A DNA stretch of 64,000 bases from Marsupella aquatica (lineage: Eukaryota; Plantae; Marchantiophyta), in assembly GCA_973895155.1 (NCBI GenBank), contig OZ316895.1:20164803-20228802 (forward strand). The letters run 5' to 3'. Made by a program: the position numbers and the translations under genes. Every line of letters begins with the position of its first letter. Within the stretch, counting starts at the first letter, position 1. The notes under the pieces were generated by a model. The model ran no database searches and was not told where the DNA came from. It saw nothing but the letters and a program-made list of their open reading frames with translations. Shown here piece after piece: positions 3,411 through 46,962 of the stretch.

Positions 3411-3785
3411 TAAAAAAAAACTTCCCCCTAATCACACTGCCGGGGTCACCTCTACTCAAAAACTTCCTTGCTCCCGGTCCTATTTTATTTCTTCTTCCCA
3501 CCAACCTTGCTATTGAGTTCTCTAAAAATGGCCCTAAAATAATGGGGAGTCCCCCAAAGGCAGGGCCCTCCTCCCAACATAATTGCAGAACAATTAGGGG
3601 ATAAAAATAAATACAGTTCTTCGGTCACAGGTGATGAAAAAATGGTTATTTACAATGGTTATTTACACTGTGCGACACTCCGCGACCAAGTTATTCGTGA
3701 TTTTATGTGACGGGGACCCCGTCACAGTCTCCATCATCAGACCCCTCCGACGCAATCAATATGGGGGGTACCTGGGGCATCAACA

Positions 3786-4169
3786 AAGTGGTACTGCCGC
3801 CTCCTTCTTGACCTCACCGCCCTTTGAGATTGGTGGAGAACCCTCAAAGCATTCAGCGTCGGACGTAAGGTCAATCACATCGTGAGCCACCTGAGACCTC
3901 TCCACCTTGACCCGAACGATGTCCCTTAGTTGAATGAAAATCAAGTACTCCACGCCATATTCGAGATTCCAAACAACGTCCTCCACTTCAGTATCAAAAT
4001 GAGCAGGCCCATCGTTCAAAGTTCTCACACTCAAAATATGTTTTCTTGTCACCCCAAATCTTCCACACAGGTAATTATCACTAACACGTTTTCTGGTTTC
4101 ATAAATTGACACAAGGATTGTCACAATGTCACCTCTATTCGGACACGTTATTCGAATAATGCGAGACAT
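3786..4169 (-). pseudogene. 5' fragment of the element C MULE transposase, truncated by the LTR insertion
   Basis: MSRIIRITCPNRGDIVTILVSIYETRKRVSDNYLCGRFG aligns with the N-termini at 21401 (STGDIVSIPVSV...YLCGRFDL) and 10801 (TTGDVVVLDV...FLSSRFGL). Confidence 0.75.
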
Positions 4170-4599
4170 TCTAACTCCCCAAAGATAACCGACTACATAA
4201 AATAATGATACATGGTAAAATATAGCTAGATTGAATGGTTGAGGGTTTCTTCTTAATCCAAGTCTCAAACGGAAAGAGCCATCGAGCAGTTATAGGATCC
4301 GTTGGGTATGGATTTTCTTACCGTTCAAGAAACAACAAAACCATCAATTCGGTGGATAGTTACTGTTGAATTAATTTTGTTGGCGTTGTAACCGACGAGG
4401 TAATATAGTAGCGCCAGGCGCTAGCGTTTTCCACATCTGAAAGAGCCCAAAAATGAACAACAAAAGCAAAGATCAACGGCCATTTTGGTTAACATCTTAC
4501 GACAACTACTCATTATGACAACATTTAAGCTGAAATGTATCGGGTTTCCTTGGAAATAGCGTCTTATTTTTGGCAGACGACAATATTACCCTCTTCTAA

Positions 4600-4994
4600 T
4601 ATTAAAATCGATCCATTTGAGCTCTAGTAGAAGTTATCATAATAATAGCGTCAGGAGCTATCATAAAATTGATATAAATGTAAAGATGTAACGGTCATTA
4701 TTTATAGAAACTTCCACATTTTGGGTCCAAACATCTAAGCCATTTTGAAGTGTCTCGTTACTAGCGCCAGGCGCTATTATTGAAATCTACCCATTTAAGC
4801 CTTATTTGAGACTAAAAGAAAAATAGCGCTTGGCACTTTCATAAAATTGATAGAAATAGAAGCCGTTAATTACAGAAACTTTCTCACTTCAGTCCAATCA
4901 TTCGCATGAATTTTTAGTACAATGTTACTAGCGCCAGGCGCTATTATTAAAATCCTTCATTTCAAGATATATTTTAGTCTAGCATAATAATAGC
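4600..4994. repeat. Degenerate tandem repeat (~170-bp unit), each unit carrying two palindromes
   Basis: GTTACTAGCGCCAGGCGCTATTATT at 4757 and 4924; TCATAAAATTGATA at ~4661 and ~4839; AGAAACTT repeated. Confidence 0.7.
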
Positions 4995-5787
4995 GAGGTG
5001 TTTACAAAAGGCAGGAAAACAGGAAACAGGCATTCATAACCGAAACTGGTAACAGTGAAAATGACTGGTAACAGGAAAATTCTAGTCTCAAACTTCGGAG
5101 AAAAAAATTCTGGTAGCACCCGGCGCTGGTAAAAATAGCGCTGAAGGCGAGGTTTTTTTAAAAGACACCAAAAAAACAAACAGGAGTAAATATAAGAAAC
5201 TCGTACCGGTAGGAACTCTCCACGATTATTGCTAGCGTCGGGCGCTGTGAAGAGTCTATAATTTGTACCAATTGCACTCTCGGAGGATATTTAATGAAGG
5301 GGGCTATGAAATGTTCGATCTCTGAACGCTATTTAAGTCAATTATAATTAACCAAAACCTTTTAGTAGCGCCTGGCGCTACTACAGTAATCCCAGTTGAC
5401 AACCATCGTCTATTCCAGCCTCCTCCCGATCAGGGTCTTTCTAGAAGACATCTAGCTGCAAAGATCCATGACTATTCCCGCCAGTTCACCTAATACCACA
5501 AAATCAGGCGGAAAACAAAACATTCATGCAACCACAGCCCAGAAAGAATCCACACCCAAGAACCCTTAGAAAATTGGGAAGCGCCCGGGGCTAGCCAATA
5601 TTGCACCTAAGAACACGTCTTCACAACTCAAACTTCAAGAATCTAAAATAAAAATATAATAGTGACAATATGTTTGAGGAGCGCCTGGCGCTAGTAAAAG
5701 TTGAAAGGGCTTAAAATCAGCCAATTCATCGAAATGGTTACATATTGAAACATTAAATGACGTATTTGAAGAAAACCCCATTGCTAC

Positions 5788-5830
5788 CTATAAACTACCA
5801 GATGTTTCTGATGCGGAGCTTTCAGATCTG
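5788..5830 (-). pseudogene. Displaced last codons of the element B ParB-MTase gene
   Basis: Joining across the TSD restores ...KSTDRSESSASETSGSL*, matching the copy C ending ...SIDRSGNSESESSNLE*. Confidence 0.8.
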
Positions 5831-6160
5831 GAGGTATTCTATTGTGCGAGCAAACAGGAGTTTTGCTAGCGAGGACAGCAGGCTAGCGAGGCAAGTTTGC
5901 GCGTAATCTGAGGGTAGTTAAGGCGCATTCCCAAGTAAGATTGTCAATATATACTGTGAAACAGTTAAGGAAAACGAAAATGCAGATACTTAAATATTCA
6001 CAAACTCAAAAATTGAGATCTTCACTACACTGAACTGAATGAAAGGCATCATCACTGTCAACAAAACCAGGTCAAAAAACCTTTCACAATCCATCTTTAA
6101 TAAAACTTTGGTATGACAAATATCTTCTGGAATGAGATTGCATCTGAAATTGACCATGAG

Positions 6161-9100
6161 TCATTGAGAATCCTCTGATTCCAAATCATCTGAGGAATTA
6201 CTAGGATCGCTACTAGACTCCCTATCAGTCTCCTCAGCCGAACCGTCAACATACTGTGCTACAGTCCCAGCCTCATCATCTATGAACTGAGGGCAGTAAA
6301 GGGCTTTCCGAACACCCCTCACTGACCGCAGACCTTTCCCCTCCCAAGTCAAAACGATGGGCGCTTCATCAACCTCCTTTGCAGTCTTTTCAGCATAGCA
6401 TGGAAGCACAAATCCCTTGTCAGGGGTCACAAGAAAATGATCCTCGATTTCTTTCCGAAGACGGAATCTCTCCTCCGAAAACCAATCCGAACGCCTATCA
6501 CTGAAGAAATCACCAGAATCGGATCAATACTAAACATCCAAAAATTCTACAAACAAAAGAAAAACACCAAATAGGGAGTTCTACATCAAAGGCCAAGTGC
6601 TTTACTCCAGGTCGAATTCATCCTTCTCGTCTGAAGGTCCTCCCTGATCATCTCCTGGGATGGTGAACTCATCATCAGACCCTTCATCTTTGGGATCATC
6701 GTTCTTCGGGTCTACGGCCCCTTTCAACTTCTGGGCATGTCTATCCAACACATTTGCCAAAGTTCTTTGTGCACACAGATGAAGAATGTCTCGATCTTCA
6801 ACACCCACAACAAATCTCCCAGCGTATTCCCCAGCGGCAAAAGCACTTCCATCTCCAACAGTCCAGTCAATGACAATGTCCTTTGGCAAAGTAAGGATCT
6901 TCATTACGGCTTGCATGAACCCAACTGACAATCTATTGGAACCTGCGAAAGCCGCCCTGGGACTGGGATCAGTTTTTGGGTAGCAAACACTCAACATCGA
7001 TTTATGGCGGGCATCCTCCGAGGAAGTCATTGGAACATATCCTGTATGTTTTGGGACTTTTGCCGAGAATTCCACCTTGCAGAAGACATCCATAATGAGA
7101 GTAACCACCTGAATTGAAAACGATAATACGTAAGAAATGGGCACTTTTGGTTAGCGAGCTCGCTAGCAAAAATTGCACAAAAAATATGGAGGATATCTTA
7201 CCTCGATGTCCATATCTGCCTGATACAAAGGAGATGAAAGCAAAACCGAATACTGCCGGACATGTTTAAATTTGTTCTTCTGTTCGACTGCAGAAAAAAT
7301 TTGCCTCATATGGTTATAGTCAGAGCTGTGAAGAACTGCGACATAACCATCATCGGCAAGCATCGGACGCATGACTCCAAAGAAATAATATGGTAATTTC
7401 TCACTCCAAACATTCCACTTCGGGACCTCCCGGTCTGTGACGCTTGTTCGATGACCCGTGGGAAGGAATATGAAACCCAAGTGAGCACCAATTCCAGCGT
7501 AATTTTTTCCGTTGATCATCACGGCGTTTGGGTGTTCGCTCGATTTGCTCATTCCAGACAACCACTGATCCGCATCGCCCATCCAAGGAGGTCTTACTTT
7601 CCTCTGGCTAATTGAGTTTGCAGTTTCCGTGAGATTGCTCTTCGCCAAGAAATGCCTCTCACTGTCCTTCTTAAGACCACACATTCGTGCTACTCCTTGC
7701 GCGACGCATGCTTCCTCCTCATCCGAGTCGGAGAGAATTTGGACATTGCGCTTCCTCTTTAAACGCTTGATTGAACCCAGGTCCACAACAGATTTTGTTG
7801 TGACCTCAACATCAGGAGACTTGGGTTCTTCTCCATCATCCGCCCCACTCTTCAAACTGCCAGAGGCTGCAGCCTTTCTCTTCTCTGAAAAACATGTTAA
7901 TGTCAGACAGGTGACTGAGACAAAATTACTCCGAATGAGGTATGAAAAAAGAGGAGAAAAAGACTTACTTTGCTTCCCAGACAAGACTGATCCATCTTTG
8001 GACGTGTCCTTCACCGGCACTTTCCGAGGTCTCCTCGATCTACTCCGGTCCACAATGGCAGCTACACCAAGAATAGCTTTCTCCATTGCATCACATCCGC
8101 CAGCCTCGGCTTCTGCAGGAGCTAATTTGGACTCTATAATGTACGACTCTGGTATCAAGCCTCGATTTATCATATGAAATGCTGCCTTCTCTGCTGTGTC
8201 AAATGTCACTGCCCATTTGTCTGATTCTAAATACCATGGACAGTGAAGGACTTCCCACTCACTCATCTTCCTTGGAGCCTCCACTCCCTCACATGGGTAC
8301 ATCGAGTACTCTCCATATTTAACAGAGGTTGGATCCTCTTTCACTCCTGCTATCCAAGGCGAGAAGCAAGCAGGATAGGACCACCAATATGTTTTGTCAG
8401 CAACTTCTCTATCCACAAAAAAACGATACGTATATCTCTTCGCCCTCCTCCGAAAAAGTGAGATGTCAATCTTCTCACCCGACTTTGGTGGCCAAATCTG
8501 TTTGAAAAAACGAGATTTCACTCTCGTTTGGAAATCTTCAAAGTCCTCCTCTATGTCAAGGATCAGCGATGGCTTTGTCTTCTCAGACGAAGTAAGGATC
8601 CTTGCATCTGGAACAGTTGGGATCAACTCTGAAATAATCTCAGACATGAGCGAAGAACAAATTGACTCAACCTGCTCCCAAATAGCCCATCGGTGAAGCC
8701 AAAGTTTTGTTTCGCTGTCCGAGAATTGACCAGGGTGGAAGTACTTCTTGCAAAGCTCAGGTCTGCATTGTGCCTCGAGGAGTACACATCTGAGCTGGGG
8801 AGTCAACGATGAGACACCCGTAAATAGCCTCGCACGATCGAGACCACATGACACATTACCCCTTCCTTTATCGTCTGTTCGTTGGGCCTCCTTCCTCTCA
8901 TGTTCGTAGTAGTTGTGCATCTCAACACACTTCTGGAAAAAGTCACCAAACTCAGGATTCAGGAGAGGTCCAATCTTTGGCACCTTCACATTCCAATCTG
9001 CCAGTTGCTCCTTCATCATGTCTTTGACTGCCATGTCTTGCACAGCTTTTGAAAGAGGTTCTCCTTGCGCTTCTTTCAGCTGAAACTTCTTCTTCAAATC

Positions 9101-10125
9101 TTCCGTCTGCGCTGCAATATTAGCAGCAGACAGAATGTACGTGCAGGCATCGAGTGTCATGTTCTTCGAATACCAAGCCGGTTTCCTGATATTTGCCATC
9201 TTCTGCTGGAAAAGTTTGTAGTTGTCTGCATCGATGATATCTTTGTATACAGAAAGGTCATTACTGAGAACCTTGTGGACTCTCTCTGCTTCAAGGACCC
9301 AAGAATTCTCAACGTGACATTGAGTCAACCTGAGCAAAAGAAACAGGTCAGCGAGATCGCTAACAAGAGGAAATGAAAGAATTGTATATACAATTCACAG
9401 CTTGAAGGAAAAGAAACAAACCTATTCAGCGCATGCATTGCCGACTCAATCTGCACGAATGAGTTCTTGTCACCCTTGAAAATTCAACAAACAACTCGAG
9501 GATGATATTTGACATCATGGGGATTCTCATCCGCAAGCTGCATCCATGAGTACAGACGATGATTTCCATCGAAAACACAGAACATTTTGTCTTTCAAAAT
9601 TTTGAAAGCTTCGTGAGAATCACATTCCCTCTCGAATTCTTCATTATGAAGAATCCACATGTCATCCCACGACTCCCGAATCACATCCTCGCACATCTGG
9701 ACAAGGCCATCTTCGCCGGTCATTTGGACGTAAAATCGAGGCGCATCTTTGATGTATCCCTGCGTCCGGAATTCATTCTTGAGTGTCTCGATCGTAGTCG
9801 AGTTAGTTTGTAAGGACCGAACGATCTGCATGTTTCGCATTCTGCAAAGGGGAATCCTCGGAGGAGCGAGCGGGAATCCAAATTCGTCATTTCCAAAAGG
9901 GAAAAGATGGCGATTGATGACAATAGAATAGGGTTCTGAAGCTCCAGGTTGAAACGTAGGATTCACAACATCTACTTGGTTCACCATCTTGGGCCTCCTC
10001 GGTGTTTTCAATCCCGCCTGGAGCGCCTTCTTGTTCACTGTAGACCTGGTCTCCCTTCGGCTTGACTCGACTGACTTGAACGATCCTATTGATGACAAGC
10101 TCTCGGGTGAAGACAATGGCTCCAT
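6161..10125 (-). pseudogene. ParB/Srx-like domain + central domain + beta-class N4/N6 DNA methyltransferase-like protein (element A); 5 predicted exons, one premature stop
   Basis: Motifs: RIPLCRM..VRSL..LKNEF..QGY..FCVFDGNHRLYSW (ParB/Srx-like); GFIFLPTG..RPMLADDGYVAV; FMQAVMKILTLPKDIVIDWTVGDGSAFAAGEYAGRFVVGVE (AdoMet-binding motif X/I). GT-AG introns 9421-9330, 7968-7885, 7201-7109 and 6605-6501 keep the frame. In-frame TGA at 9484-9486. Confidence 0.82.
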
Positions 10126-13100
10126 CAGGGGGTCCGTGAAGTGATAAGGGTATCAACAGGTCAAGGTCGAGGGCGACACGCTTTGCGAACATAAAAACAC
10201 CCGAGAATCGATCTTCCAATCAAAGACAGAATCGTACCCTCGTCTGTTGCTTTCACCTGAATGCTGCGCCCGGTCATGAAAAGAGATACAAATATTCTAT
10301 ACGACTCTTCTCGCAATCATTTTTCAGACAACGTCAGGTATACATGTACTTCCGGAAATACGAACCACCGAACTCACGACTGAAAGAAAAGTATCTAATG
10401 ACAATGAGACAGGTGTCCAGTACTGTACCGTACCGTTGACATGTAGGTACCCGTTGACCAATTCCAACGGATATAAACGGTCACAATGGTCTCTTATGAG
10501 GAAATGTTTTTGCTAGCGACATCGCTAGCCAAAAAATGACCACTAAATACATTAACTCCTGAAGGGTGTTTTGTAAGGATTTGAACAATTTTACTTGGTT
10601 CATTGAGCTAGCGAGATCGCTAGCTTTATCATTCCGCAAATAGAGTCATATAAGACAAAATAACGGTCAGATAATGGGAATAAGAGGCATTTATTAAATA
10701 AATATGTTGAGTCCAACACCTACACAAGCACATTTCCTCATATGTATTTGGAGAAAGAAGAGAGCGAAGTATCTCACATTGTGGATTGCTGTAGACTGTA
10801 ATGTCCAAAACTTCCAGCATGTCTTCATTGGGATCGAAGGTTGTGATCGAGAGAAAGACGACGGGTGATGTTGTTGTTCTGGATGTTCCGGAGAATACTA
10901 TTATCTCTGTCAAGGAGTCTTTTCTCTCATCGAGGTTTGGGCTTTTCAAAGATGATTTCATCTGGAAGTTGTTCGTTCTTTACTCTCGGGATGGATCCAG
11001 AAGTCACGAGGTGTCGGATAATGGTTCAGGAATATTGCCAGAAAGAGCTTGGGACCTAAAGGGTGGTTCAGATGTAGAGCTAGTCTCATGTAAGGATGAC
11101 ATTGCACATATCAATGTTTCCGATCCAGAATCCCCGACTCGACCGTCACCTGCAGTACCAGAAATTATTGACATCTCCCCTGAGAGTGTGGGTAGGGATG
11201 TCTCTTCTGTGTCGACAAAGTCTTCTGAGAAATCCGTTTTTGAAGCAGTGAGTCAAAACGAGTTTCAATCTAAGCCAGTTCTTTATCGAGTTAGTGCATA
11301 TGATGCCTTTCTCAATATTATTGGGTCAAGCGAGTTGGCAAATTTCCGCAGGGGAAACGATTGGAAGGAGATTCAAGTGCAGACTTTGCCCACTTCATAC
11401 AACGGAAACTGCGTTTTTGAGCTTCCTCCGGTGGAAGGTCAATTTCGTCGAGGATATGGTCTTCAGGACATGGATAGGGATAATGACGACTATCCATGGA
11501 CGAGACTTCTCACAACTTCAGCTAATCTCAAACCTCGCAATCACTGGTCTGTGTCAAAAGTCAGATGTGCCGGTGTACTTGAATGCCAAAATCTGGTCTG
11601 TAGAAAGTTGAAGCACACCGGTTCAAAAAATGACTCTTCCTTCCGAGGAAACGGACAATTTACTGAGCCGTTTCATCTTGGTGAGCTTGTGGAGGAAGGA
11701 GGGTTGGTGTGCGGATTCTGTGAGGAGAGGCCTCTCTGCATCCGTGAATGTCCAGCTAAGCTTTTGTACGTCTATCCTAAGCCGTCTCTTGAGTCAAATG
11801 TTGCGAAACATATGTCTCGATTGGCTGTTCACATGGGTTTCCATGACCACGTTGTTTGGAAGGGGAAATCTTGATTGGCAAAAAAGCAGGCGGAGGAGAT
11901 AGTTTCTGGTGTTCATAAAGCGAATCCCGTGTGTACGCCAGGGCGTGTTCTTAACAAGTCTATAGGAAACCTGGTTTCTCTTTTGCATCCAGAGTCTTCT
12001 TCAAAACTATCAAAAGAAGAAGAGAGAGAGATTTGGGAATCGATGAAGGTTGTGTCCACTGTTGAGAAATTCCAGGCCATATTCCGGAGCGTGAAAATGG
12101 ATAACCCAAAAAAGGGTGAGTTGGATTCTCTTCGTGAGATGCAAGCACGGAATAATTTTCCTTATGTTCAGAGGTACCTTTTCCCTGGGCAGGGGAGCAA
12201 GACCGATAGGGCTCATGTCTTCAAAATGAGTACAAATGGCCCAGGTTCTGGTGTCGATATTCTCAGGCAGATGAAGAGTGGAGGTGAGCTGGAAGGAGCA
12301 TGGGTCAGTTCTGATGTAATGCGGAGAATAAGCACTGGGTGGCTGACTTTCAGCGCCCATGTGTACGACCATAATTACAGGTCCCTTTGTACCATCTTCA
12401 CTTGTGAGCTCCGTGCGGAGGACTCCTTATCTCTTGAAACCGCATGGAGATATATGATTGAAGTTGCCTCTGATCATGATGTGCATGACCCACTCATTGG
12501 AGGATTTATTGCCGATAATGCCGAGGCTGGATGGATCGCCATTCGAAATGTTTTTTTTGGAGGTGTCCGTCACCCACAGAAGGAGCACAGTGACGCCTTT
12601 CACTTTGCTCAATCTCTTTGTCGTCACACATTGGAGGGTATTCGGGAAGATCGCCATCGAGAGCACTATAAACTGTGGGAAAGGGAGAGAACAGCACCAA
12701 CATATGTTCAGGCCTACCGTGTTGCTGACGAAATCCATTGTTGGTGGAAGGAAGGAAACTGCTATGCTGGGAAATTGAAGTCTCTCCAAGGATGGTTATC
12801 TTGGTGGGTCGTGAGGTGGAGGCAGTGGGGGAACTTCATCCGCATTGTAAGTGTCCAATTTCATTTCTCTTTGACGTCATTGTTTTTGCTAGCGACCTCG
12901 CTAGCATATCAGGTCTGACTGGGGACTACTTTTTGCAGACGCAAACCGCAATGGAGTCAGCCTTGATGCCAAATTGTACTGGAGCGGAATCAGTCCATGC
13001 ATCCATGAGATCCTGCCAAATGAAGAAACTAGTGGGATTGATTGAAGCATGTGAGGTGGACCAGAATCGTGCTGCGGGGCAAATTGCTGCTTTTACTGCC

Positions 13101-14950
13101 TACAGTGAAGGTGTTCACAGAGGCCAGGGGCCGACCATTTTTGAATTAGCATATAGGAACGCCGATGCTATGGGATCCATGGATGCTTACGAAAAGGCAG
13201 CAAATCTTTTGCTTGAGTCTTCAGCTAAGTATGAATTCTATAGAACAGTTCCATTACATGGCGATCTCCGAACAACATCCACGAAGAGGAAAGGGAAAGC
13301 TTCAGCTGTAATCCACGAGAATGACTCCCACAGACATGACAAGGTGTCACGCACAACAGCTTCTCCTTCAGGACTAAAAAGGCGTAATCTCTATCCTGAA
13401 TTTCGCTTCGTCAATGTTTCGGAGACTTCTGCGGACCCAGAAGTAGCAAATAATACAACTTCGGCAACACCTATCGGAGGTTGTTCTGCTAGAGTTATCC
13501 ATATTTCAGATGATGATGGTGATGATGCAAGTCGTAATGTCAATGATACCGTGAAGATGGGGACTCAACCTCAGTGTGATGTCGGGGATGACCATCGGGA
13601 TGCCCCCCAAAGGATCCCTTCCATCCGAGAGGTTGATGTTCCTTATGGGACCTGGCATCTCAGGCGGAGCGGTAGAGGTGCTGGACCTGTTTGCAACGGG
13701 TCGGTTGACCGAAGCGTTTTTGGAAGAGATGAATGTAGAAATCTCATCAAGGAGACTGGATGTAAGTCCGCGCAAGGGGGAATTGTTGGAGTCGCCATTC
13801 ATGGGTTGCGATTATCGTCTCCACATCGCCAGTTGTTGTACTTTTGTCCTAATAATAAGTGTCACAAGAGCCGAGGACACAGAACTCTAGCTCAACTACC
13901 CCCCCCACCCGAGTCGCTCAAGGTTCAGCGTGGGACTTGCCTCTCCCATCCCGAGATAGAGTTTCTGCTGGGATTAGGATTCCAGATCAGTGGACTCTCC
14001 TATGTGGATGCAAATCAAGTTGGAGAGTTCCCGTCCCCCAATCGGGTCAACCTACGAATTGATGTTAACTCATTCCCCGAACGAATTGATCTAACTAATG
14101 TGGACCGTCGGTTGAAAACTCGAAATGGTAAGGGTGCAAGACAGCGTTTCAGCAATACTCCAGAGTTGCTCAAGCGCATCGTTTCCGCTACACAAGAATA
14201 CATGAGAGTTGTCGGAAATGAGAAGGTAACTACCGGAAATGGATGGGGTTGGAGATACTTGATCGCCACTCACGAGACTGATTCACAAGTTCCGCACACA
14301 TATTGGGTGCAAATCTGTTGTTTCCCTTCGTGTTCTTGTGAAGACTTTTATAAGAGGCATACACGAGGGAAACCATACATGTCTTGTAAACATCTGCTGT
14401 GGGTGTATTTAAACAAGTTTTCACTCAACCTAGAGAAGGACGACCTTGTCAAACAGCCAATTCTGACTGTTGGGGAAGTGAGGAGTTTAATTCCGTTACA
14501 GATAGGGGACTAGTCGTTTATTGGAGATGCTAATTATAGGGTGGTGGGATGGATTACTCGAGTTTGTGGTTTCACAAATATCAATTTGTTTTCACCGAGT
14601 GAATCATAATGTTAGTGAGGTCCACAATGGTAACTTTTATGGTGTTTGAGTTTTCTGTTTACGGTTAGCAATCTCTCTAGTCTTAGGAAGTCTGCTGCAT
14701 CCTGACAGAAACATCCTACTTTCATACGTGTTAATCTATCGACAAGTTTCTATAGAGTTCACGGTTTGATCATTAAAATGACGCCAGTTTTTGGCTAGCG
14801 AGATCGCTAGTCTGATCAACGGTATCTAGGACAGGATGTGACAGGATGTTTAGGGTTTAGGGAGGGAAGTTTCCCCTGAAGTTGTTGTGGTAATACTCGA
14901 TCGAATTGATTTTCAAAGATGAACACAGTTCTATACTAGCGATATCGCTA
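7152..14950. repeat. Dispersed 14-bp palindrome TAGCGA-NN-TCGCTA (type A), confined to element A
   Basis: Copies start at 7152 (intron), 9349 (intron, 1 mismatch), 10514, 10609, 12890 (intron), 14796 and 14937. Half-sites or degenerate copies lie near both TIRs (5867, 16111). Confidence 0.9.
10801..14513 (+). pseudogene. MULE/Mutator-type transposase with GCM/WRKY-like Zn domain, DDE core and SWIM finger (element A); one premature stop, one intron
   Basis: Zn domain: WTRL...RCAGVLECQN..C...CPAK...HMGFHDH. DDE core: WVSSDVM, FIADNAEAGWIAIRNVF, DAFH, CTGAESVH. SWIM: CSCEDF...CKHL. In-frame TGA at 11872-11874; intron 12847-12938 (GTAAGT...TTGCAG). Confidence 0.88.
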
Positions 14951-15136
14951 GTCTGGGAAAGGTCCAACAGTGACTTCAAAATAAAAGTACTATGTGCGAA
15001 ATGGCATTCCGGAGAAACACATAGAAATGAAAGGACCACCCAAACTTTACTTCTCATACATATTGAAAGTACATGAGGACATGCGGTTCGCTTGTAACTA
15101 CAAAAATTTCAGTAAATCCACAACCTGACTCTACCC

Positions 15137-15565
15137 TCAGGGGCTGGACGCCTTCCATGCATCGGAGTCAGTGTCTGACTCTGAATCGTAATCCGAAGAG
15201 GCGAGGCGTTCCTCGGTCCAGTAGTCATAGATCTCCCTGTCAATCCAATACTGATCCTCTTCTGCGAGCCTCTTCCTCTTCGATACAACCTCGCGCTGTG
15301 TGGTATCCACCTTTGGCTTCGGTGGAGACTTTGCTGCTGGAATTAACTTTGGAGGAGTAGGTGTTCTCCTCAATGATGATGACGATCCAACAGATTGACC
15401 GAGTTCGGTTGGGACACTGCTGCCTGAGGAGACCTTCATAGTCTCTGCATCGGGTTTCTGCTTCGGAGGAGAGTCATCTTCAACCGGGCCATCTGTCGCC
15501 GGGTTGTAACGACGGATCTCAAGTCGCCATTTCCACTGAGGAGGATTTCTTGGAACACCAGACAT
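15137..15565 (-). CDS. Small third ORF of element A (Pro/Ser/Lys-rich, acidic tail), unknown function
   Basis: About 140 codons from MSGVPRNPPQWKWR, lying between the transposase and the right TIR. The N-terminal RNPP..W.R motif is echoed at 35035. Confidence 0.45.
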   Translation of the reverse strand: MSGVPRNPPQWKWRLEIRRYNPATDGPVEDDSPPKQKPDAETMKVSSGSSVPTELGQSVGSSSSLRRTPTPPKLIPAAKSPPKPKVDTTQREVVSKRKRLAEEDQYWIDREIYDYWTEERLASSDYDSESDTDSDAWKASSP

Positions 15566-16321
15566 TTCTTTGCACTTACGAAACCCAAACAATGATTAAA
15601 GAGAACAGGATTCAACAAATGGAAACATTATTCACGGTGGAATACGATGAATATCATGCCTTGTCGGAGAGTTCTTCCCTTAAAACAGCTCAAAGAATAG
15701 ACCCGTGCTTACCTGAACTAGATCTGGAGAGTGTTGAGAACTTGGAACACTGATAGCAGTTCCGAATGAAAGAGATCAAGTCGGAGGTGGTGGAAGTGAT
15801 CGGGAGAATGATTTGGAAGACTGGTGGTTTTTGGGCTAGCGGATTTGTTTAAGTGGACGGTTCGACGCCTTGGATTCGAGTCTGGTTCGAACGATAAGTG
15901 TCCCGTTCACTTGCAAGTGACTTAATTAGTGTCCAAACGGCCTTAATCCTCCTTTCCTTGGTAGTAATGACACGTTGATTCTTTTCACGCGGGAATCGCG
16001 AAGTACTTTTTTGTTATTACTCTTCCTCAGGTGGGAATTTTCACATGTGGAAGCCTGTACGTGGAGACCGTACCTCGTATGAGTGGCTCAATGTGTTGGC
16101 ATCATTAGACTAGCGATTTCGATGGCCTGAAGATATGTCATTTTGATCTATTGCATTCACGGGACTAGAATCGTCCATGGGTAGCCGTCTATATTTATTG
16201 ATCGAACAGGGTCTCCATGCTAGCGAGGAATATTCCAGACCTTTTTTGGGCCCCAATACAAGGTGACATCTTGCCCGTGCGAGCAAAAATTCTACTGTTT
16301 GCTCGCACGTTACAATTACCC

Positions 16322-19300
16322 TCAGATCTGTCCGTGGACTTGGCTTCATCATCAATGTACTTGCTTCGGGAAACATCATCTATATAAGGGTTCCTCATGA
16401 ACTTCTTGTCTGCTCCCCTATGAAGACGTAGACCTTTTGTTTCCCAACAAAGAGTTCTAATTTTGTCAACCCTCCTAGCGGCATTTTCAGCGTATGAGGG
16501 CAAAACAAACGGCTTCTCAGGAGTGACAATTACATTCCTAGCTAGTCTCCTCCGGAGTTGGAAACGCTTCCTCAGATTCCATTCTGACCTGATCCAGTAA
16601 AATGGAAAAACATATGAGTTTAGGAGATAAGAGAGCAAGAACCCAGAATTGTCAACAACACTTGAAAGGATAAAGAAGCTTACTGGAAGAACATTACTCG
16701 TTTGAGTCTTCGCTCTTCTCCAAAGAAATTTCCTCCTGTGTTTTCTCTGTGTCATCTCCGACGTCTCCAGAGGTACCTTCCTCTTCGTCAGAATCAAAAT
16801 TGAGAACAGATCGGAGCCTATCTTTCTTTTTGCGACCACTTAAATTGGTCGCGGGAGGAGGTAGTATTGGAACATGCCTGGGATCAAGAAGTTCTAAGAA
16901 AACCCTTGATGCGGTCTCAACAAACTCACGCCTATTTTCCAACCCAATCACGAAACGACCAGAAAAATCATCAGCAATGAATGTGCTTCCTGAACCTACA
17001 GTCCAGTCAAGGACAATATCTCCAGGAAGAGTAAAAAGCTCTATCACCGATTGCATAAAACCAACCAAAAGACAGGCGTTCCCAGCAAAATCCAACTCCG
17101 AGCAATGATCTGTCTTCAAGGTTGGGAGCCCAATCAAGTTAGAGATCGAAGGATCTTCACTTATTGATAGAGGCTTAAACCTTGGATCCTTTGGTACCTT
17201 TCCTTTTGAAGAAGTCCGACAAAATATGTCTAGCCTAAGGGTAAATACCTGCACGCATCGCACACGTTTGGCTCAAATTATCAACCAATGGGTAATGTTT
17301 TGAGAACTACAGCAAAGACTAAATTAGCGTCAGGCACTAACAATAAACAAGAGATGCAATGATCTGTACCTGAATATCGGTCTTTGCTCTGTACATGAGC
17401 ATAGACATGACGACATTGTGAGAATTGACACAATGGAACTTTTTTGACTGTTGGCATGCTAAAATGACCTGCGAGACCTGGTCATGGTCATCTGAATACA
17501 AGATCGCAAGCATGCCATCATCAGAAAGGAAAGGGTCCATCGCTTTGAAGAAAGAACTGGGAACTGTGTGGTCTGGTACATTCCACTTTCGAACCCGACA
17601 GTCCCTAAGCGTAGGTTTAAGTCCAGTAGGAAGATAGATGAATCCTGCATTGACACCAAACGATCTTTCTTTTCCTCCTCTGATTACTCCCTTTACTCGG
17701 GAACCCAACTTGATTAAGTCCTTTCCCCATTTCTCTGCATCAGTCACCCAATCTGGTTTCGCTACTTTGTTGAAAGCAATATCAATAAATTCTTGGATAC
17801 TTGTTTCCACATGCAATGCCTAGAAGATTTGCTCTTGAAGGTTCCCACATCTCTCTGAACACCAGTTCCAACGGCATCATCTCGGGAAGATTCTCTAGCT
17901 TGAATTGCCCTTTTCTTCTTCTTCTTCTTTGTACTGGTTGCATCAAGAGGGACGATCTCTTTCGCTTTGTCAATTGAAGTTACTAGGTCTGCCTGGGCAC
18001 CGGTATTGGCTTTGAAAGTCTCTGAAGTGGCATCTACTTTTGTTTCGTCGGTTGCAGCGTCAGACTTTCTCCCACCTAAAGGAAAAAGAGCAAAATTGAT
18101 TCAATGCTGAATAATAGCGCCAGACGCTGTCCAAACCAATTGAAAAAACAAACCAATAGACATAGTCATATAGTAGCGCCTGGCGCTAACCAAAATGTGA
18201 AGCTACAAGTTGAATGACAACTTACGTTTTTTGGCGGACCGCGTTGAGGTACTCGGTGCAGCAACTTTAGTTTTGCTTTGGCTCTGGGTTTGTGACTTCG
18301 ATCAACATGAACAACCGTAGTTTTGCACACCGATTGCAATTCTGCCGTCGACTTGCTCACATCACCTTCGATTCCCTGCTTCATGTCGGACACAAACTTG
18401 GGAGGGACTTGAGACTTTGAAAGCTTATGAAATGCGTCTTTCTCAATGTCTCCAAATGGAGAGTCCCATCTATCGATGTCCAAATACCAAGGACAATGAA
18501 TTCTCTCCCATTCTGATAGTTTCCTTGGTGGAAGACACCCTTCAGCGGGATACATTGAATACACGTCGGCCAGTATGTCTCCTTCGGGAACAACGATCCA
18601 CTTTTGGAAAGTAGCAGGGTATGCCCAAAAGTAATCTGGCTTCACAATCTCCATATGCATGAAGAAATGGTATAGGTATCGTTTGGCCCTCTTCTGATTC
18701 TTGAGGGTGTAGTCAGCCTTGTCGGGATACTTGGAAGGCCACATTGTATTAAAAAACTTGCCTTTCACAGCATCCCCAAATTTCTTGAAGTCATTTGAGA
18801 CTATTTCAATAAGCGATTCAATCGACTTACACTCCCACTCCTGTAACCAATTGGCGGGGACTATATCACTGATCTGGCGTAGGGAGGTTTGCAGCAAACC
18901 AATAGCGATTCCCTCCACAGTGTTCCAAGTTTGCCAGGTATGGCACCATTGCTTCACTGGATCATCATTAATGCTCTGTGGATGGAAGAATTGTTTTTCA
19001 GCTCCGGTGTCCTATGGGCAACCAGAAGGGTACTCCTCAGCTTGGGATCGAGGGCAGAGACAGCGGTAAACAATCTTGCTCGATCCATTGTACAAACAAC
19101 TGCATCCGGCTTCTTCTCTCTCTTATTCTTCTCTGTGAGGGGGTACATCTCAGCACATGTCCGCATGAAATCCTCAAAAGTAGGGCTTAACAGAGGAGTG
19201 ATTTTTGACACCTTTATCGCCCAATCCTTTGTTGCCTCCTTCATCATTGCTGCATGTCTTTTTGAAATCTCTACGGAAGACCAAGGTGTACCTTGAGTGG

Positions 19301-20400
19301 TAGCATGTTCCAGATCCATCTTAAACTGTCTAGAATAAGACTTGATCTTATTCTCACACAAGATGTATAGAAGCGCTTCTTGAGGCATTTTTTTTGTATA
19401 CCACGATCCCTTCCGTGTTTTCAGCATGATCTGCCCAAACTTCTTGAAGTTTGCAGCGTCAATGATAGACTTGTAGTAATCGAGTTCATTTGAGAGAATT
19501 CGGTTGATACGGTCTGCATCAAGTATCCAAGAGGGTTCAACCACTGCCTGCCCAAGCCTGAAAATGAGAGAGGGAGTCAGTAGCGCACGACGATAGTGAA
19601 ACACTATGACCATAGATTAGAATAGAAATATATTGGAAGAGACACTTATTGGTTAACAGTGTGCATCGCCGCCTCAATCTCGATCAAGGACCCCTTTTCT
19701 CCCTTGAATATTGTGCACTGGATGCGATGATGGTATTTCACATCATCCGGATTCTTCTTCGTGATGATGGACCATGCGTAGAGTCGATGGTTTCCATCAA
19801 ACATAGAAAACATCTTATCCTGCAAGACGGAGAAGTCAAGGTCGGCAGCACATTCCGCCTCAAACTTTTCATTCTCTATGACCCAAATTGCATCCTAGGA
19901 AGCACGAATCTCTGGCGTGTAGATCTGGACTTCACCATTGGAATCTGTTGGTTGAACGTAAAACAGCATGCCGATCTTAGAATTGTATCCAGTGCTCTGA
20001 AAGGAGTCTTTCAGCTTCTCTATCGAAGGACTTCCCTTCTGTAATGTCCGCACTACTTCCATATGAAGTAGTCGGCACATTGTAATCCTTGGCGGATCCT
20101 TGTCATGTCCTCAGAAATCTTTTCCAAACGACATAATGTGTTTGGAGATCACATCGTAAACAGTCAGCAACGTCTCTCCGAAGTCCTCCACAGTAAACGA
20201 ATCAGAATCATCCATCTTTCCTCTCTTGCTATTTGGGAATGATATAGTGGGTTGTGCTCAGGGGCTCGCCAAGCAGTGGATCGAGTCACTCGACGACTAT
20301 ACACAAATCCTAAAAATGAGCACTCAGATGTTTGCAAGGGAACGACCTCTCTGTGTCCGTTTCCACTAAAGCATTGAGAGGAGGATAAGACAGGGTCCAT
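16322..20400 (-). pseudogene. ParB/Srx + methyltransferase-like gene of element B (frameshifts and stops; 3' end split by element A)
   Basis: Homologous blocks: DGNHR (~19790), LGQAVVEPSWILDA, MDRARLFT, YSMYPAEG, HCPWYLD, AGFIYLPTG, TLPGDIVLDWTVGSGSTF..GRFVIGLE. Intron positions match copy A. Confidence 0.85.
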
Positions 20401-21019
20401 TGCTTGCACAAGGGCAAAGGAAGCACTGACAACCACCGCGCTCTTTCCGTACCGCGAACGGCAAAAACCCGTCACACAGCTTCGATTGTACTGTACTTAA
20501 CATGGGAAATAAGAAGAATCTAGAGCACAGAGCATGACATATACGCTAAGGAAACTGAACTCCTGGCCTGGATCTATGACACATATCGTTATCTTATTCG
20601 ACAACACATAAGGGGATCGATGTATTGAGGGTCACGCAACCTATAGTTACCGTTGAATATGACCGTTGAAAGGAAAACCTGAGAATATATAGAATTAATT
20701 TTTACTCACCAAATAGTAGCGCCCGACGCTAGTAATTTCCAAGGCCTAAAATCTTTAATTTTTATGTCAGTTGGGAATTCAATATAGAGCCATAAGAGGC
20801 GCTAATATGCCATTACTTTCCCCAAAATCCGGTTTTCTCGTATTTCTGATACAAAAGAAAACTAGCGCCCGACGCTAGCAAAAAAAGAAGTCTTTTCATC
20901 CTTTTGAAGCCTCATACTTGTAGTTTTTACCATTGTATACGTTCATAATATGAATGATATCAATATTAGCGTGTGGCGCTAATCATCCAAGGTCTCCGTT
21001 AGGAATTTGTTTTATGTCA

Positions 21020-21175
21020 TTTGCTTTTATTAGCGCCTGGCCTTACACATAAATTGACGTTACATGGACCCCAACCTTTTGGATTGTTATGAATAGCATC
21101 AAGCGCTGAACATAAATTGACTCTGCATGGACCTCTACTTTTGCAATGTTTTTAATAGCGCCTGGCGCTATTCAT
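21020..21175. repeat. Short tandem repeat (~63-bp unit) carrying palindromes
   Basis: TAGC.. motif + ACATAAATTGAC..CATGGACC repeated at 21031 and 21094, with a third palindrome at 21156. Confidence 0.65.
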
Positions 21176-22268
21176 CATCTGATATTTCTAGAACAAAAGG
21201 GTTCTTCCTAAATGACGTTTATCGTTAATGCCGTTGATCGTAAATGACGTTGATATAACGACAAAATACATTTATGGTGTCAGAGGATTGTCTTATTATA
21301 ACGGCTTTAGGGAACTGTTAGTCAGGATCAATGATAGTCCTCATCGGTGGAATTTTGATTCATAATTTTCCTGCGCTCATTCGCTTCTAAGGCTTCTGTG
21401 ATGTCTCAGTCAATCGTAGTTACCCATATGTCCACCGGTGACATTGTTTCCATTCCAGTGTCTGTGACCGAAAGGTACAGGCAAATAAGTGAGGTTTATC
21501 TTTGTGGAAGGTTTGATTTGCGCATGAATGACATAGAGGCAATCGTTCAGGAGGGAACGGAAGCCAATGACTTCGAATCTGTCGTAAAGGCGTAAAGGCG
21601 TAAACGTAAAGTCATAACTCCGTAAAATCATAGAGTCATAAACCCATAATGTTTTACCTGTAATGGCATCTCCTCCTTTTACGGTGGTGCCCCTTTGAAA
21701 GTGTCTCTCCCTTGATTGTTTACAACCAACTTTGGCTCGTCCTTCCTTATCTGAGTCTTCTATTTTGATTTTGCAATATTGTTCTAGCTAATTCTTGTAT
21801 GGAGATAAGGATATACTCTTCTCCAGTAACTCTACCATTTAACTTTAAAATAACCAGATGCAAAACTCCTCCTCCCCACCAGGTAATACTTAACCAATGA
21901 ACACCCCTCCTCCTCTTAGGGACAGTACCCATGTTTGAACATACCAATTATGCAAATTCCTTACTCTCAAAGTGCCTAAAGACCTGATCAGAGGCATTTC
22001 AATTATTTTGCCAAATTGCTTATTCAAAGTTAGAATCAAGGTTTTAATTTGGGGAAATCCCCCCTTCTGTTGTCCTCTTTTATGCTGAGGTCCGGTAGTT
22101 ATTCAACAAATTTTCTAGAGTGTCCAGGGCATCCACCCAAGGGTGTTCAACAATGTGTAATTTTTCCAACACCTCCTTGATTCTCAGTTCTTCTTCTCCA
22201 GTAACCCAGTTACTAATTTGACCATTCTTGCTTATTACAAATTCTAAATCATGTTCTTCCTTAATGGG

Positions 22269-22940
22269 CTACAACTTATATTCCTCATCATCAATCCAAA
22301 CTCTCTTAAAGACTATTACATCAGTCAATTTAGAACATTGAGGGAGGGTGGAGGTCCATGTAAAGGATGCTCTTTCTGTACTTGAATCCCTCCATTTTAA
22401 CAAAGCCCATCCACTTCTGGCTTGCCATTTACAAGTGTCAACCAGCTCCCTTCTATTGGAGGTCATAACCGGTCTTTCCTCCCGAAGTATTAAATTGGGA
22501 TTATCCTGATAAAACTCTATTAAAACATAATCAAGTTGGTTCCTCCATAAGGGATCCCCCTTTAATCTTGCCAATGCTTTCCTTAATTGATACTCAAGTT
22601 CCTCCTCCAATATTTCCTCCTTAATGTCATGTTCTTTTAGTAAGGGGGAAATAAAATTGGCATCAAATTCATCATCTTGAGTGGCTTCAATCAATTCCAG
22701 TCTTCCATCTATGGCTCTTCTGAAAACAAATACACAATCATACAGAATATTGGTGTCCCACGAGTCAACCTTCACCAATTCGCCACCCCAAAAGTAGCTT
22801 CCTCCTCCTTGGTTGGACGCTTGCCTTCTCAAAATAGTTGTTCTATCTCGTGCAGTGGCATTGATAATCGTGTGTGTTTGATTATCCCTAGACCTAATTA
22901 AGGCTCTCTCTCTTTTCTGAGGCCTGCTCTTTCTTACCAT
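22269..22940 (-). CDS. Unknown ORF just downstream of the PBS (retroelement 5' ORF)
   Basis: 223-codon ORF with no recognisable motif. Confidence 0.35.
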   Translation of the reverse strand: MVRKSRPQKRERALIRSRDNQTHTIINATARDRTTILRRQASNQGGGSYFWGGELVKVDSWDTNILYDCVFVFRRAIDGRLELIEATQDDEFDANFISPLLKEHDIKEEILEEELEYQLRKALARLKGDPLWRNQLDYVLIEFYQDNPNLILREERPVMTSNRRELVDTCKWQARSGWALLKWRDSSTERASFTWTSTLPQCSKLTDVIVFKRVWIDDEEYKL

Positions 22941-23230
22941 TATCTTTCTCTAAAAAACATTCCCTTGCTAAGCACCACTTAATCTTTCCTACTTGGCCTT
23001 AGCTTTCCTCTTTCTTTCCAAAATTGTGGCAGGATTTTCTCCTACAATCCTTTCCCTAAATGCCTCTAGTGCATTTTTCACTGTATAAGGTTGAATTTCT
23101 AGCCTTGGAATTGCCCATTCTCCATTAGGTTCCATGGTGGCAATCACCCTTATTTTATTCCATCATCTTTACTGAACTCAAACCTTCTTTTGGCATTCAC
23201 TACCTGTACTTCAAACCTTCCTTGATTTGT

Positions 23231-23248
23231 TCCCCGGCAGCGGTGCCA
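23231..23248 (-). promoter_or_regulatory. Primer-binding site TGGCACCGCTGCCGGGGA
   Basis: Close to the TGGCGCCGTTGCCGGGGA (tRNA-Asp type) PBS of Athila/Tat-related gypsy elements. Confidence 0.7.
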
Positions 23249-23743
23249 AAAATCTCATGTAGTTTGAGAGGTGACATTGTTCCAGATTCTCTGTTTCTCA
23301 GCTAATGAACTCGTTGAAACAAGGGTAACCTTGGGCTCTCGAGGAAGGTAAGCGTTATGGGGAGAAGTAGATTTCTTACTCTGCATGAGAAAAGAAACCA
23401 CAAAATCTAGGGCATAAGCTGCCAAATTTCCAAAATATGCTAGAACTAAATCTGGATCCTCCACCTCTACATCACCCTGAAGTAGCATCACAGCAAGAAT
23501 GGGCCGGAAATAGAGAGAGTTAGTCCAGAACTCATCAAATTGTGCCATCTCCAATCTGGAAGTTCCAAAACACCTGAGGTCGAAGATATAACTGGCCTCT
23601 GTCTTCTTGAGATAGTAGTATTTCCAGAACTCTCCAACCGGTGGTCTGTTGGCCTGCATAATCTTACAGGTCTCCACATACCTGTGCACTTGGGACTCTG
23701 GATGTCTCGGGTATCTACTCTCGATGGTGGCATTCCGGGGTGT

Positions 23744-25351
23744 CTAAGTAGATGAGGTGACAACTGCTACTAAGTTTGGATTGGATCTTAAGGCAGTATC
23801 AACATCTTCAAATCCCTGCCTTGGGGATGACTCAAGAGAATTATCATAAGATCTATAAGTTTCACCATCTGAGGGTGGATCAGAGTCTTCAGGTAGATCC
23901 TCTCTGTCGTAAGGGTGCTCATATTGTGACCGATTGTAGGTGGGTCCTTCTATGGGTTCATAGTTGGAATTAGGGTTGTAAGGTTGCGAACCTGGGCTAG
24001 GAGTGGGACTAGCAGTTGGACATTGTTGGATCAAGTTGCAGACCACGGATGCTATCTGTCGAGGTTCACACTGAAGTATTTCTAGCAAGCCATCCACAAT
24101 GGCCACACAGCTGGTACTATCTGCTACTGGAACAGATTCGCTTGTTTCTAGGGGAGGGGGCTGTACAGTGACAGGAGTACAGATCATAAACTCCATTGGT
24201 GCTGGTTCTCTTGGGGAAGAGGTCATTCTGACAGGACTTAGCTGATCATGAAATGGTGATCTCAAACTAACAGCCTCCATTCTCAAATGATTAACAACAT
24301 CATATAGTCCATCATCACTGCAACTGAGGAGAGATGTCAACTTATCAATAAGCTGCTTATTCAACTCTGCCTTTGAAGGAGTGGACCTGGTGGTCACATG
24401 AGGAGTAGCATCAGTTGGTGTAGCAACATCGTCTTGTTGATGAATGTTCCTTACTCCTTCAACTTCTAGTGGATCTGCACCTATGGTTCGACTGGGAGAA
24501 GGCTCATCACTCATTGGATGGTAATCGACTTCCTTGCTATGCATAGGAGAATGTGTAGGGACTTCTAATGAAGTATCCTCCATAGGAACATCAGCATTGT
24601 CCTCAACATTCTGATCATTCAAATTCAATGGGGTGACATGTACAATGTCCTCCATGGGAATTTCTTCTTCAATACCCAGGTCAATCAGGAGTAACCCCCT
24701 CTCTGTCTCTTCCTCTAGATATAAATAGTCATGGGTATAATAGAGCTGAGAGAGATAATTCTGTAAGCAAGTGGTCCTCCCTGCTTCCAAGCTCCTTACT
24801 TGATCCTTCATTACATTAAACAGAAGTAGGGCCCAATTTACTTTTATAGCTCCACTATGAGCAGCTACAATGGTGTTAGCCAAGGCCACAGGACAAAGAG
24901 TTGGCTTTTTTGGATGAAGAATGGGTACCAAAAATTCCATGAGTACCCTCAATTCAGGATAAGTACATTGGGACAAGTTCCAACCATTCTTGGCATTTCG
25001 AGTTCCTGATAAGTATGGAGTAGATAAGTCCTGCTTCTTGGAATATAACGCCTCTCCTTCTGACGGGCATCCAAAGGCGTAAGCAATTTGCTCAACAGTC
25101 CACAGGCTGGGGTGAGCTCGAATTGTTCGCCTGAATTCAATCGGGATGATAGTCCCCTTCACAAAATCCTGCAAGTAGGAGTCGCGCTCGATATTCCAGG
25201 GGATCCTGAGCAAGCGCTCCAATCCTAACTGCTGTAAAGAGTCTTGTAAATTAGAAAGACTATCAGGCGCTCGTGGTATACGAGCTGCCACTACTTTTGA
25301 GACTGCTAGAGCTTCAATTTGATACTGTTCCTCAGCACCCAGGTTCGCCAT
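23744..25351 (-). CDS. Retroelement accessory protein homologous to the LTR-borne ORF
   Basis: LGLERLLRIPW..LQDFV..IAYAFGCP..KNGWNLSQCTYPELRVLMEFL aligns with SGLEAFVRLPW..LLEFV..IAEVFGLP..KNGFFRNTCTNPHIGEMIDFL of the 42687 ORF. Confidence 0.65.
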   Translation of the reverse strand: MANLGAEEQYQIEALAVSKVVAARIPRAPDSLSNLQDSLQQLGLERLLRIPWNIERDSYLQDFVKGTIIPIEFRRTIRAHPSLWTVEQIAYAFGCPSEGEALYSKKQDLSTPYLSGTRNAKNGWNLSQCTYPELRVLMEFLVPILHPKKPTLCPVALANTIVAAHSGAIKVNWALLLFNVMKDQVRSLEAGRTTCLQNYLSQLYYTHDYLYLEEETERGLLLIDLGIEEEIPMEDIVHVTPLNLNDQNVEDNADVPMEDTSLEVPTHSPMHSKEVDYHPMSDEPSPSRTIGADPLEVEGVRNIHQQDDVATPTDATPHVTTRSTPSKAELNKQLIDKLTSLLSCSDDGLYDVVNHLRMEAVSLRSPFHDQLSPVRMTSSPREPAPMEFMICTPVTVQPPPLETSESVPVADSTSCVAIVDGLLEILQCEPRQIASVVCNLIQQCPTASPTPSPGSQPYNPNSNYEPIEGPTYNRSQYEHPYDREDLPEDSDPPSDGETYRSYDNSLESSPRQGFEDVDTALRSNPNLVAVVTSST

Positions 25352-34573: not shown

Positions 34574-34819
34574 GTTTAGTGTGAATTTCTAAGGTTTTCT
34601 TTGGAACCTTGTACTAGCGCCCGACGCTATTAAATTGGATGTTCGGATCTGAGCCTTTAAAGGAGATAGACGCACCGGAAGTCTCTTTCCTGAGTGCATA
34701 TTTGTGCAGATATCAGAAATGCATGTACTCGTACAGTTGTACGGTGAATAATTATACCTTCAATCTGTACATATTTTTGTTTGTGGATGATATGATCGTT
34801 TGGACTCTCTCAAAGTGTA

Positions 34820-35000: not shown

Positions 35001-35034
35001 CCTGAGTTTTGCATACGTTGTTTCCATCGACTCA

Positions 35035-46940: not shown

Positions 46941-46944
46941 TTTT

Positions 46945-46962
46945 TGGCGCTAGATGGAGGGG
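46945..46962 (+). promoter_or_regulatory. Primer-binding site TGGCGCTAGATGGAGGGG
   Basis: TGG-initiated motif 4 nt after the 5' LTR CA end. Confidence 0.8.

Follow-up and report, generated by a model that had tools for sequence, protein, structure and literature searches.

Nested Mutator-like elements of the liverwort Marsupella aquatica carry an accessory gene with ParB/sulfiredoxin-like and methyltransferase-like domains and candidate recognition palindromes

We analysed a window of 64,000 nucleotides from the liverwort Marsupella aquatica (NCBI GenBank assembly GCA_973895155.1, contig OZ316895.1, positions 20,164,803 to 20,228,802 of the forward strand; all coordinates below are those of the window). 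It contains three elements, A, B and C, that fit divergent Mutator-like DNA transposons (MULEs) and that pair a transposase with a long accessory gene, here called gene 2. They are nested, C containing B and B containing A. Gene 2 encodes a putative ParB/sulfiredoxin (Srx)-like domain, an all-helical middle domain and a domain related to DNA methyltransferases, and the non-coding DNA of the elements carries two types of palindrome that are likely candidates for family-specific recognition sites.

Element A (5831..16321) lies within the last exon of gene 2 of B. A 9-bp target site duplication (TSD), TCAGATCTG, flanks it on both sides (5822-5830 and 16322-16330), and 21 of 28 bases are identical in the alignment of its ends. 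In three of four runs, which represent three studies, there are contigs that connect 5821 with 16322 through nine letters fitting either side and so represent the empty site; the run that covers this site best may be the source sample. These data confirm the limits that a first-pass annotation had given to an element bounded by a TSD and terminal inverted repeats (TIRs). Gene 2 of A (6161..10125, minus strand) has a putative start codon and five exons (10125-9422, 9329-7969, 7884-7202, 7108-6606 and 6500-6161) separated by four GT-AG introns; its 1,196 codons contain a single internal stop, at codon 214 (9486-9484). The transposase (10801..14513, plus strand, intron 12847-12938) has 1,206 codons after splicing, a single internal stop at codon 358 (11872-11874) and a putative C-terminal SWIM-type finger. 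The two start codons are 675 bases apart, and splicing copy A bore out the proposed head-to-head pairing of a transposase with a spliced gene of about 1,200 codons. A 142-codon open reading frame (ORF; 15137..15565, minus strand), convergent with the transposase, is present only in A. Contigs of three runs cover this region, and the ORF has no relative elsewhere in the window and no Pfam match above the cut-off.

Element B (4995..29951) is inserted in the intergenic region of C. Its limits, 4995/4996 on the left and 29951 on the right, are marked by ATAATAGC(G), a repeat of 8-9 bp found both at 4987-4995 and at 29952-29960, and its ends are related (19 of 36 bases identical). The right edge is supported by one contig whose alignment breaks off at 29952 and by a second in which letters like the left flank are connected to 29952; earlier candidate ends at 4397 and 29980 were rejected, as they had no TSD and a contig crosses 29980. 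Gene 2 of B (16331..20400, minus strand) has its final codons past A, at 5821-5788. Its transposase (21401..29278, plus strand, intron 27499-27752) starts at 21401, is interrupted, and resumes at 25795. The insert of about 4 kb that splits it (about 21600-25790) carries minus-strand ORFs at 22269-22949 and 23744-25687; these had no Pfam match, and blastn found no terminal repeats.

Gene 2 of C (30366..34573, plus strand) has four introns at the shared positions. The C transposase is present only as an N-terminal fragment of about 130 codons (3783..4169, minus strand), truncated by another insertion and recognised by a 38-aa match, at 50% identity, to the start of the B transposase (E 1.7e-6). 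A tblastn search of the window with the A transposase matched A and B only, and the view that the pair is present only twice was dropped once the C transposase start was found at 4169-3783. The pair therefore does occur three times, as first annotated, with the qualification that the copies are nested and damaged and that the third transposase is this fragment. The probable right end of C (36311..36346, minus strand; GAGG..CAGGAAA) is like the B ends, and its left end lies outside the window. The right arm of C also holds a 69-base remnant of a transposase 3' end (35996-36064, plus strand), 75% like 29210-29278 and followed by a palindrome; its orientation does not suit C's own transposase.

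Every copy of the pair in the window is broken. By frameshift-aware alignment, B has four frameshifts and two stops, and C four frameshifts and seven stops. Thousands of contigs map to these element regions, and some of the B and C lesions (17809, 27844, 28907, 30921) are missing from other copies; these are therefore multi-copy families. Both B (19897-19899) and C (30828-30830) have a TAG where A and the homologues have a Trp codon, probably through parallel decay at a methylated site.

The assignment to Mutator-like elements rests on the 9-bp duplication, the short G-starting ends, the D..D..H..E spacing and the putative SWIM-type finger. The TSD and the TIRs agree with this part of the first-pass annotation, but no profile matched the transposase, which weakens the assignment: there was no match in the Pfam, PHROG, PDB or plasmid libraries, and no relative of the transposase was seen in viral contigs (0/8). 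The candidate triad D505-D572-E699 and the D..D..H..E spacing fit what we take to be the MULE pattern, with DAFH where we would expect CxxH. The CxC..CxH finger is found in the A and B transposases (Pfam SWIM, 16.6 bits for B against a cut-off of 19.6), and the N-terminal region is rich in Cys and His. The TSDs are near the approximately 9 bp of MULEs (9 bp with an empty site for A, 8 or 9 bp for B). The TIRs are short and imperfect, 21/28 in A and 19/36 in B; TIRs of 20-50 bp are reported for several MULE groups (PMC6446971; this and all other publications are cited from the accessible part of their text).

Gene 2 of A, B and C shares four intron positions, and 10 of the 12 introns have an intact GT..AG. 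Across about 1,150 codons, protein identity is 59% for B and C and 37-39% for the other pairs. The proportion of synonymous differences is 0.71-0.93 and that of nonsynonymous differences 0.21-0.57, with synonymous saturation in most comparisons, including those of the ParB, middle and methylase regions; dN/dS can only be bounded, dS being saturated in 15 of 21 comparisons. The retention of the proteins while synonymous sites saturate supports long-term purifying selection on gene 2. Together with the shared intron positions, it sustains the proposal that these diverged copies represent a maintained module. Among database ORFs, 41 of the 47 long enough to judge (58 matches) end 46-53 residues past the DGNHR motif, and intron 1 of A falls 49 residues past it, which suggests that this intron is old. 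The fifth exon (6161-6500, 16331-16588, 34274-34573) encodes a conserved 90-aa tail (F.LP.YAE) that is also present in a Riccia model and has no family match.

At E<=0.001, a profile of the N-terminal domain retrieved 1,120 cluster representatives; 150 of these were viewed. Among 30 proteins looked up, the named relatives came from Calypogeia fissa, Riccia sorocarpa and two Adiantum species, so that relatives of gene 2 are present in liverworts and ferns; none of the 30 bore an algal name. R. sorocarpa contributes 12 gene models to the clusters, and one of these is full-length (KAL3677308, 1,207 aa). A midpoint-rooted tree of 32 hand-picked rows for this domain places the window copies together with Calypogeia and Riccia in one clade (99/94), in keeping with a liverwort host. 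No related locus was found in 36 and 187 candidate stretches from metagenomes or in 14 from prokaryotic genomes. Of ten viral contigs, one gave a match; it spans 23 codons and falls within an ORF that we take to encode an unrelated kinase. Three Riccia proteins (P0264, P0262, P0265) are called 'Trimethylguanosine synthase' in UniRef; their profile matches instead indicate the fold of a DNA amino-methylase. P0230 of Adiantum capillus-veneris has a short methylase-like remnant followed by a terminal NIF/FCP1-like phosphatase domain (E 2e-12), either a fusion or an annotation join.

The N-terminal domain (9421..9918 in A, minus strand) comprises the DGNHR motif and a helical insert; the VRSL and FDGNHR motifs singled out in the first-pass annotation are both present. 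An AF2 model built from 59 sequences has a pLDDT of 91. When it was compared with 48,161 solved chains, the top nine were all ParB/sulfiredoxin proteins, although for some of them this superfamily membership is our assumption. They include SerK (Z 5.8, rmsd 3.3, 77 aligned), KorB (Z 5.8, rmsd 2.5, 77 aligned), sulfiredoxin (Z 5.7, rmsd 3.0, 74 aligned), SbnI, Atu1540, PadC, a Pnob8-like ParB and Spo0J (rmsd 2.5-3.3 and at most 77 aligned residues throughout). The first 20 rows of a Foldseek search likewise listed ParB/Srx proteins, none at E<=0.001. DGNHR, a GxxR-type motif that we take to be equivalent to the nucleotide-binding motif of the ParB box, is invariant in all 59 rows. In Pfam, none of the 59 members matched ParBc, and only DUF1015 (E 0.019) and DndB (E 0.066) appeared, in one member each; PDB sequence searches gave nothing relevant. 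Because the Z scores are under the tool's comfort level of 8, the assignment relies on how uniformly ParB/Srx proteins rank first and on the invariant DGNHR. We thus find moderate support, with Z at most 5.8, for the earlier suggestion that the gene-2 N-terminus folds like ParB/sulfiredoxin. By itself, such a predicted fold would be compatible with a CTP clamp, a kinase-like site or a nuclease-like site.

The domain that follows (8030..9328, minus strand), about 430 aa long, is predicted to be all-helical, with confident helices (pLDDT 84, 18 sequences). Two fold searches returned no family for this model of over 400 aa, whose rows mostly cover residues 30-126, and the absent match would be no proof of a new fold.

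The C-terminal domain (6725..7582, minus strand), split by intron 3, resembles beta-class N4/N6 DNA methyltransferases. Exon 4 of B matches positions 167-221 of PF01555 with 33.3 bits against a cut-off of 26.7, while A (E 0.07) and C (E 0.011) stay below it; PHROG DNA methyltransferases match the domain down to E 6e-8. Searches for longer relatives of exon 4 gave none among 444 candidates, and a plasmid search matched only the region of the S-adenosylmethionine (SAM)-binding motif of DNA methylases, at E 0.05 or worse. Alignment with two phage methylases, chosen from 48 weak tblastn matches, reveals the permuted beta-class order, with the catalytic region N-terminal to a SAM-binding motif that is kept. 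Like phage and plasmid methylases of the DLPY/DIPY type (PF01555; PHROG 3008, 67 and 498), the domain combines this order and SAM motif with a Trp after the catalytic motif. It differs from them in being encoded by a spliced gene, in its eroded catalytic motif and in its fusion to the unmatched helical domain, and the similarity is low (at best, 74% of the Riccia domain aligns at about 21% identity, E 0.2). The first-pass claim of a C-terminal methyltransferase fold is thereby made specific, with the amendment that the catalytic motif has eroded: FLPT in A and YLPT in B and C stand where the phage enzymes have DLPY and DIPY. Riccia proteins have DLPT, DMPS or DMPT at this position, Adiantum proteins DVPF or DFPI, and none of A, B, C, Riccia or Adiantum has a motif of the (D/N/S)PP(Y/F/W) type.

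Because both key residues of the catalytic motif are lost, the sequence points to a domain that is non-catalytic or altered yet still under selection, and probably not a normal methylase. There is precedent in the inactive methylase domains of DIRS1 elements (PMC4738411). We consider it unlikely that gene 2 instead encodes a functional amino-methyltransferase whose active site is unusual and which writes 4mC or 6mA at the palindromes described below to mark self or to block 5mC. An active enzyme would account for the SAM-binding motif and following acidic residue kept in A, B, C and Riccia, for the strong constraint on the domain (B-C dN 0.32, dS about 3.4) and for the catalytic Asp retained in Riccia and Adiantum, and a protein that binds and modifies its own element has been proposed in Ectocarpus (PMC12477816). 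It is harder to reconcile with the DPPY-type motif of the three window copies, where Asp and Tyr have both been replaced, with the loss of an HPTQKP stretch present in the two phage enzymes, and with the rotifer N4CMT, in which a change from SPPY to APPA abolishes activity (PMC8885841).

The palindromes lie in non-coding DNA. Nine of the A type, TAGCGA-NN-TCGCTA, are located at 7152, 9349, 10514, 10609, 12890, 14666, 14796, 14937 and 16111 (7152..16124); with up to two mismatches, the window has 10 matches against 1.07 expected (0/100 shuffles), nine of them inside A. Thirty-three palindromes of the B/C type, TAGCGC-NNN-GCGCTA (4409..36153), against 0.46 expected, are divided between B (18) and C (15); A has none, nor do the final 27.6 kb of the window, after 36,346. 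Coding DNA makes up 69% and 62% of the respective regions, and no site of either type (0/9 and 0/33) overlaps it. Ten of 14 introns hold a palindrome (13 intronic sites), and at the orthologous introns 1, 3 and that of the transposase the type follows the family, with A carrying its own type and B or C the B/C type. Four sites belong to a region of tandem repeats of about 170 bp in the C spacer (4579-4995). Family variants, for which 80 rows of about 3,350 were viewed, touch four motif sites; other copies are nearer the consensus at three of these and further from it at one.

This distribution bears on three other explanations. Palindromes could work at the RNA level, folding into hairpins across branch points and so regulating splicing: the intron 1 motif of A, B and C stops 19-23 bases short of the acceptor, and its right half continues into branch sequences like CTGAC, CTAAC or CTAAT. 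We regard this as highly improbable, since 29 of the 42 sites lie outside introns and the distance within introns varies between 19 and 231 bases. Scarcely more credible is a gene 2 that steers insertion to the palindromes of related elements and so gives nests. The TSD of B takes in the first half-site of a C palindrome (4987-4995 and 29952-29970), a motif that B shares; this is a single case, and A landed in a B exon without the motif at its site. A less remote but still doubtful explanation is that the palindromes are binding sites of the transposase, serving as internal enhancers or in self-activation, and that gene 2 is a separate helper, for instance in transposition like MudrB. The Cys/His-rich N-terminal region of the transposase and the half-sites near both A ends would suit this, as would the AtMu1 transposase, which binds and activates its own family (bioRxiv 2026.08.24.746577). 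However, AtMu1 transposase peaks at the TIRs (bioRxiv 2026.08.24.746577), whereas the palindromes here are internal, the nearest full ones lying 119 to 1,321 bases inside the termini, and the B and C termini use a different repeat, CAGGAAA.

By analogy, gene 2 resembles VANC in its layout and algal accessory proteins in its domain content. PF01555 was the sole Pfam family above the cut-off for gene-2 pieces, and that scan gave no VANC domain, the result being read against what we take to be VANC's own domains. VANDAL elements of Arabidopsis are likewise Mutator-like, carry an extra gene, and have family-specific non-coding motifs, some in tandem repeats; VANC21 binds a short motif, different between families, that is gathered in introns and in intergenic and terminal non-coding DNA (PMC5735166). 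Unlike the palindromes, VANC motifs are 8-9 bases long, non-palindromic and in the same orientation, and VANC binding and demethylation have been demonstrated (PMC5735166, PMC10398659), whereas gene 2 has different domains and a predicted role. VANDAL has been described as the only transposon that binds and modifies its own sequence through an accessory protein (bioRxiv 2025.02.11.637652).

We favour the reading, with a probability of roughly 0.45, that gene 2 is a family-specific self-recognition and anti-silencing factor that acts without normal methyl transfer. It draws on the palindrome layout, which matches that of VANC targets, and on the palindrome itself, which would suit a ParB-like dimer; ParB binds inverted repeats, parS (bioRxiv 2025.02.11.637652). 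The gene-2 protein would bind the palindrome of its own family, in introns and spacers, as a dimer. Its ParB/Srx domain would load at the palindromes and spread from them with the help of a nucleotide (in analogy to ParB, CTP), and its SAM-binding, methylase-derived domain would recognise or cover the CG and CCWGG cytosines of the palindrome instead of methylating them. The bound protein may then shield the element from host silencing, and motif and protein would change together as families diverge, as in VANDAL and VANC. All that goes past the anatomy (boundaries, gene structure, domain order, eroded motif and palindromes) is what we infer from it. The first-pass annotation had already proposed an anti-silencing factor; the family-specific palindromes in non-coding DNA add support to a role that is still a prediction.

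Several observations weigh against this interpretation. The AtMu1 transposase alone binds and activates its own family (bioRxiv 2026.08.24.746577), and half-sites of the A palindrome lie 36, 53 and about 100 bases from the element ends. Intron 4 is without the motif in A, B and C. The P values for the palindrome patterns (3e-5 and 1e-14) are generous, because the patterns were read off the same window and the sites are not independent, some being tandem. The window offers two motif types, and B and C, which share one of them, are also more alike (59%) than either is to A (37-39%). Support for the ParB fold is moderate, with Z below 8, Foldseek E above 0.001 and no ParBc match in Pfam, and the two fold searches gave no clear helix-turn-helix match in the middle domain. 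Riccia retains the Asp (DLPT, DMPS, DMPT), as does one Adiantum protein (DVPF), and the placement of the catalytic motif depends on an alignment to which hhalign gives a probability of 3.5% (E 0.012), with agreeing columns. As to novelty, transposon accessory genes with ParB and N4/N6-methylase domains are in print for brown, red and green algae.

These algal genes temper the first-pass impression that no such MULE had been described, since an accessory gene of this content, opposite a transposase, has been published for an Ectocarpus Sola element, and similar ones for red and green algae. The accessory gene of Sola1-1_Ec32 encodes a protein of 1,104 aa with ParB-like and N4/N6 DNA methyltransferase domains, and similar proteins are cited for green and red algae (PMC12477816). 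As in gene 2, ParB and N4/N6 methylase are joined in one protein of 1,100-1,200 aa on the strand opposite the transposase; its host, in contrast, is a 21.5 kb Sola element of a brown alga with a 4-bp TSD and a 282-bp TIR. The likeness is one of domain content, and the accessible text gives neither a target motif nor an eroded catalytic site (PMC12477816). The PAG2 and PAG3 genes of red-algal Plavaka elements also bring a transposon-borne ParB and an N6A methylase together with inverted repeats, and have homologues on Mutator elements of Chondrus (bioRxiv 10.1101/2025.02.11.637652). There, unlike here, the two domains belong to different genes, one of which joins ParB to a 2OG oxygenase and the other the methylase to a SET domain, and the repeats form one array adjoining the ParB gene instead of single sites in introns (bioRxiv 10.1101/2025.02.11.637652). 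Bacterial-type beta-class amino-methylase domains are otherwise known in eukaryotes from Marchantia DN4MT1 and rotifer N4CMT, active SPPY host enzymes that the accessible text does not describe as transposon-borne, DN4MT1 without extra domains and N4CMT with a chromodomain (bioRxiv 2021.02.12.428880, PMC8885841). A term search of the accessible text of a MULE survey found no mention of methyltransferases (PMC6446971). We found no paper on the gene-2 family in land plants, in a search outside which lay subscription papers, Repbase and bioRxiv supplements. New here are the land-plant Mutator-like host, the eroded catalytic site and the family-specific palindromes.

Elsewhere in the window, a near-identical direct repeat (42314-57134, spacing 10,851 bases) with a coiled-coil ORF of 1,100-1,200 codons surrounds the gag/pol region of a Ty3-like retrotransposon.

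A more far-reaching proposal, which we think improbable, is that Mutator-like elements of liverworts and ferns run a ParB-parS-type anti-host system, in which a nucleotide-gated clamp would load at the family-specific palindromes of the introns, slide along the element and carry a dead methylase as shield against, or reader of, CG/CHG methylation, and the palindrome spacing (four or five bases between the TAGCG arms) would encode family identity. If so, land plants would possess a second sequence-specific anti-silencing system, of independent evolutionary origin, and a ParB-type clamp would be at work in a eukaryotic nucleus. The algal ParB-methylase accessory genes are without a known target, and the two related families described here bring two distinct candidate targets. 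If the anti-silencing reading of gene 2 is true, a bacterial partition and methylase module would have been reused against plant silencing, and it may provide a sequence-specific tool usable in Marchantia. Should gene 2 bind its own palindrome, this would give a function to a class of accessory proteins of algae and non-seed plants.

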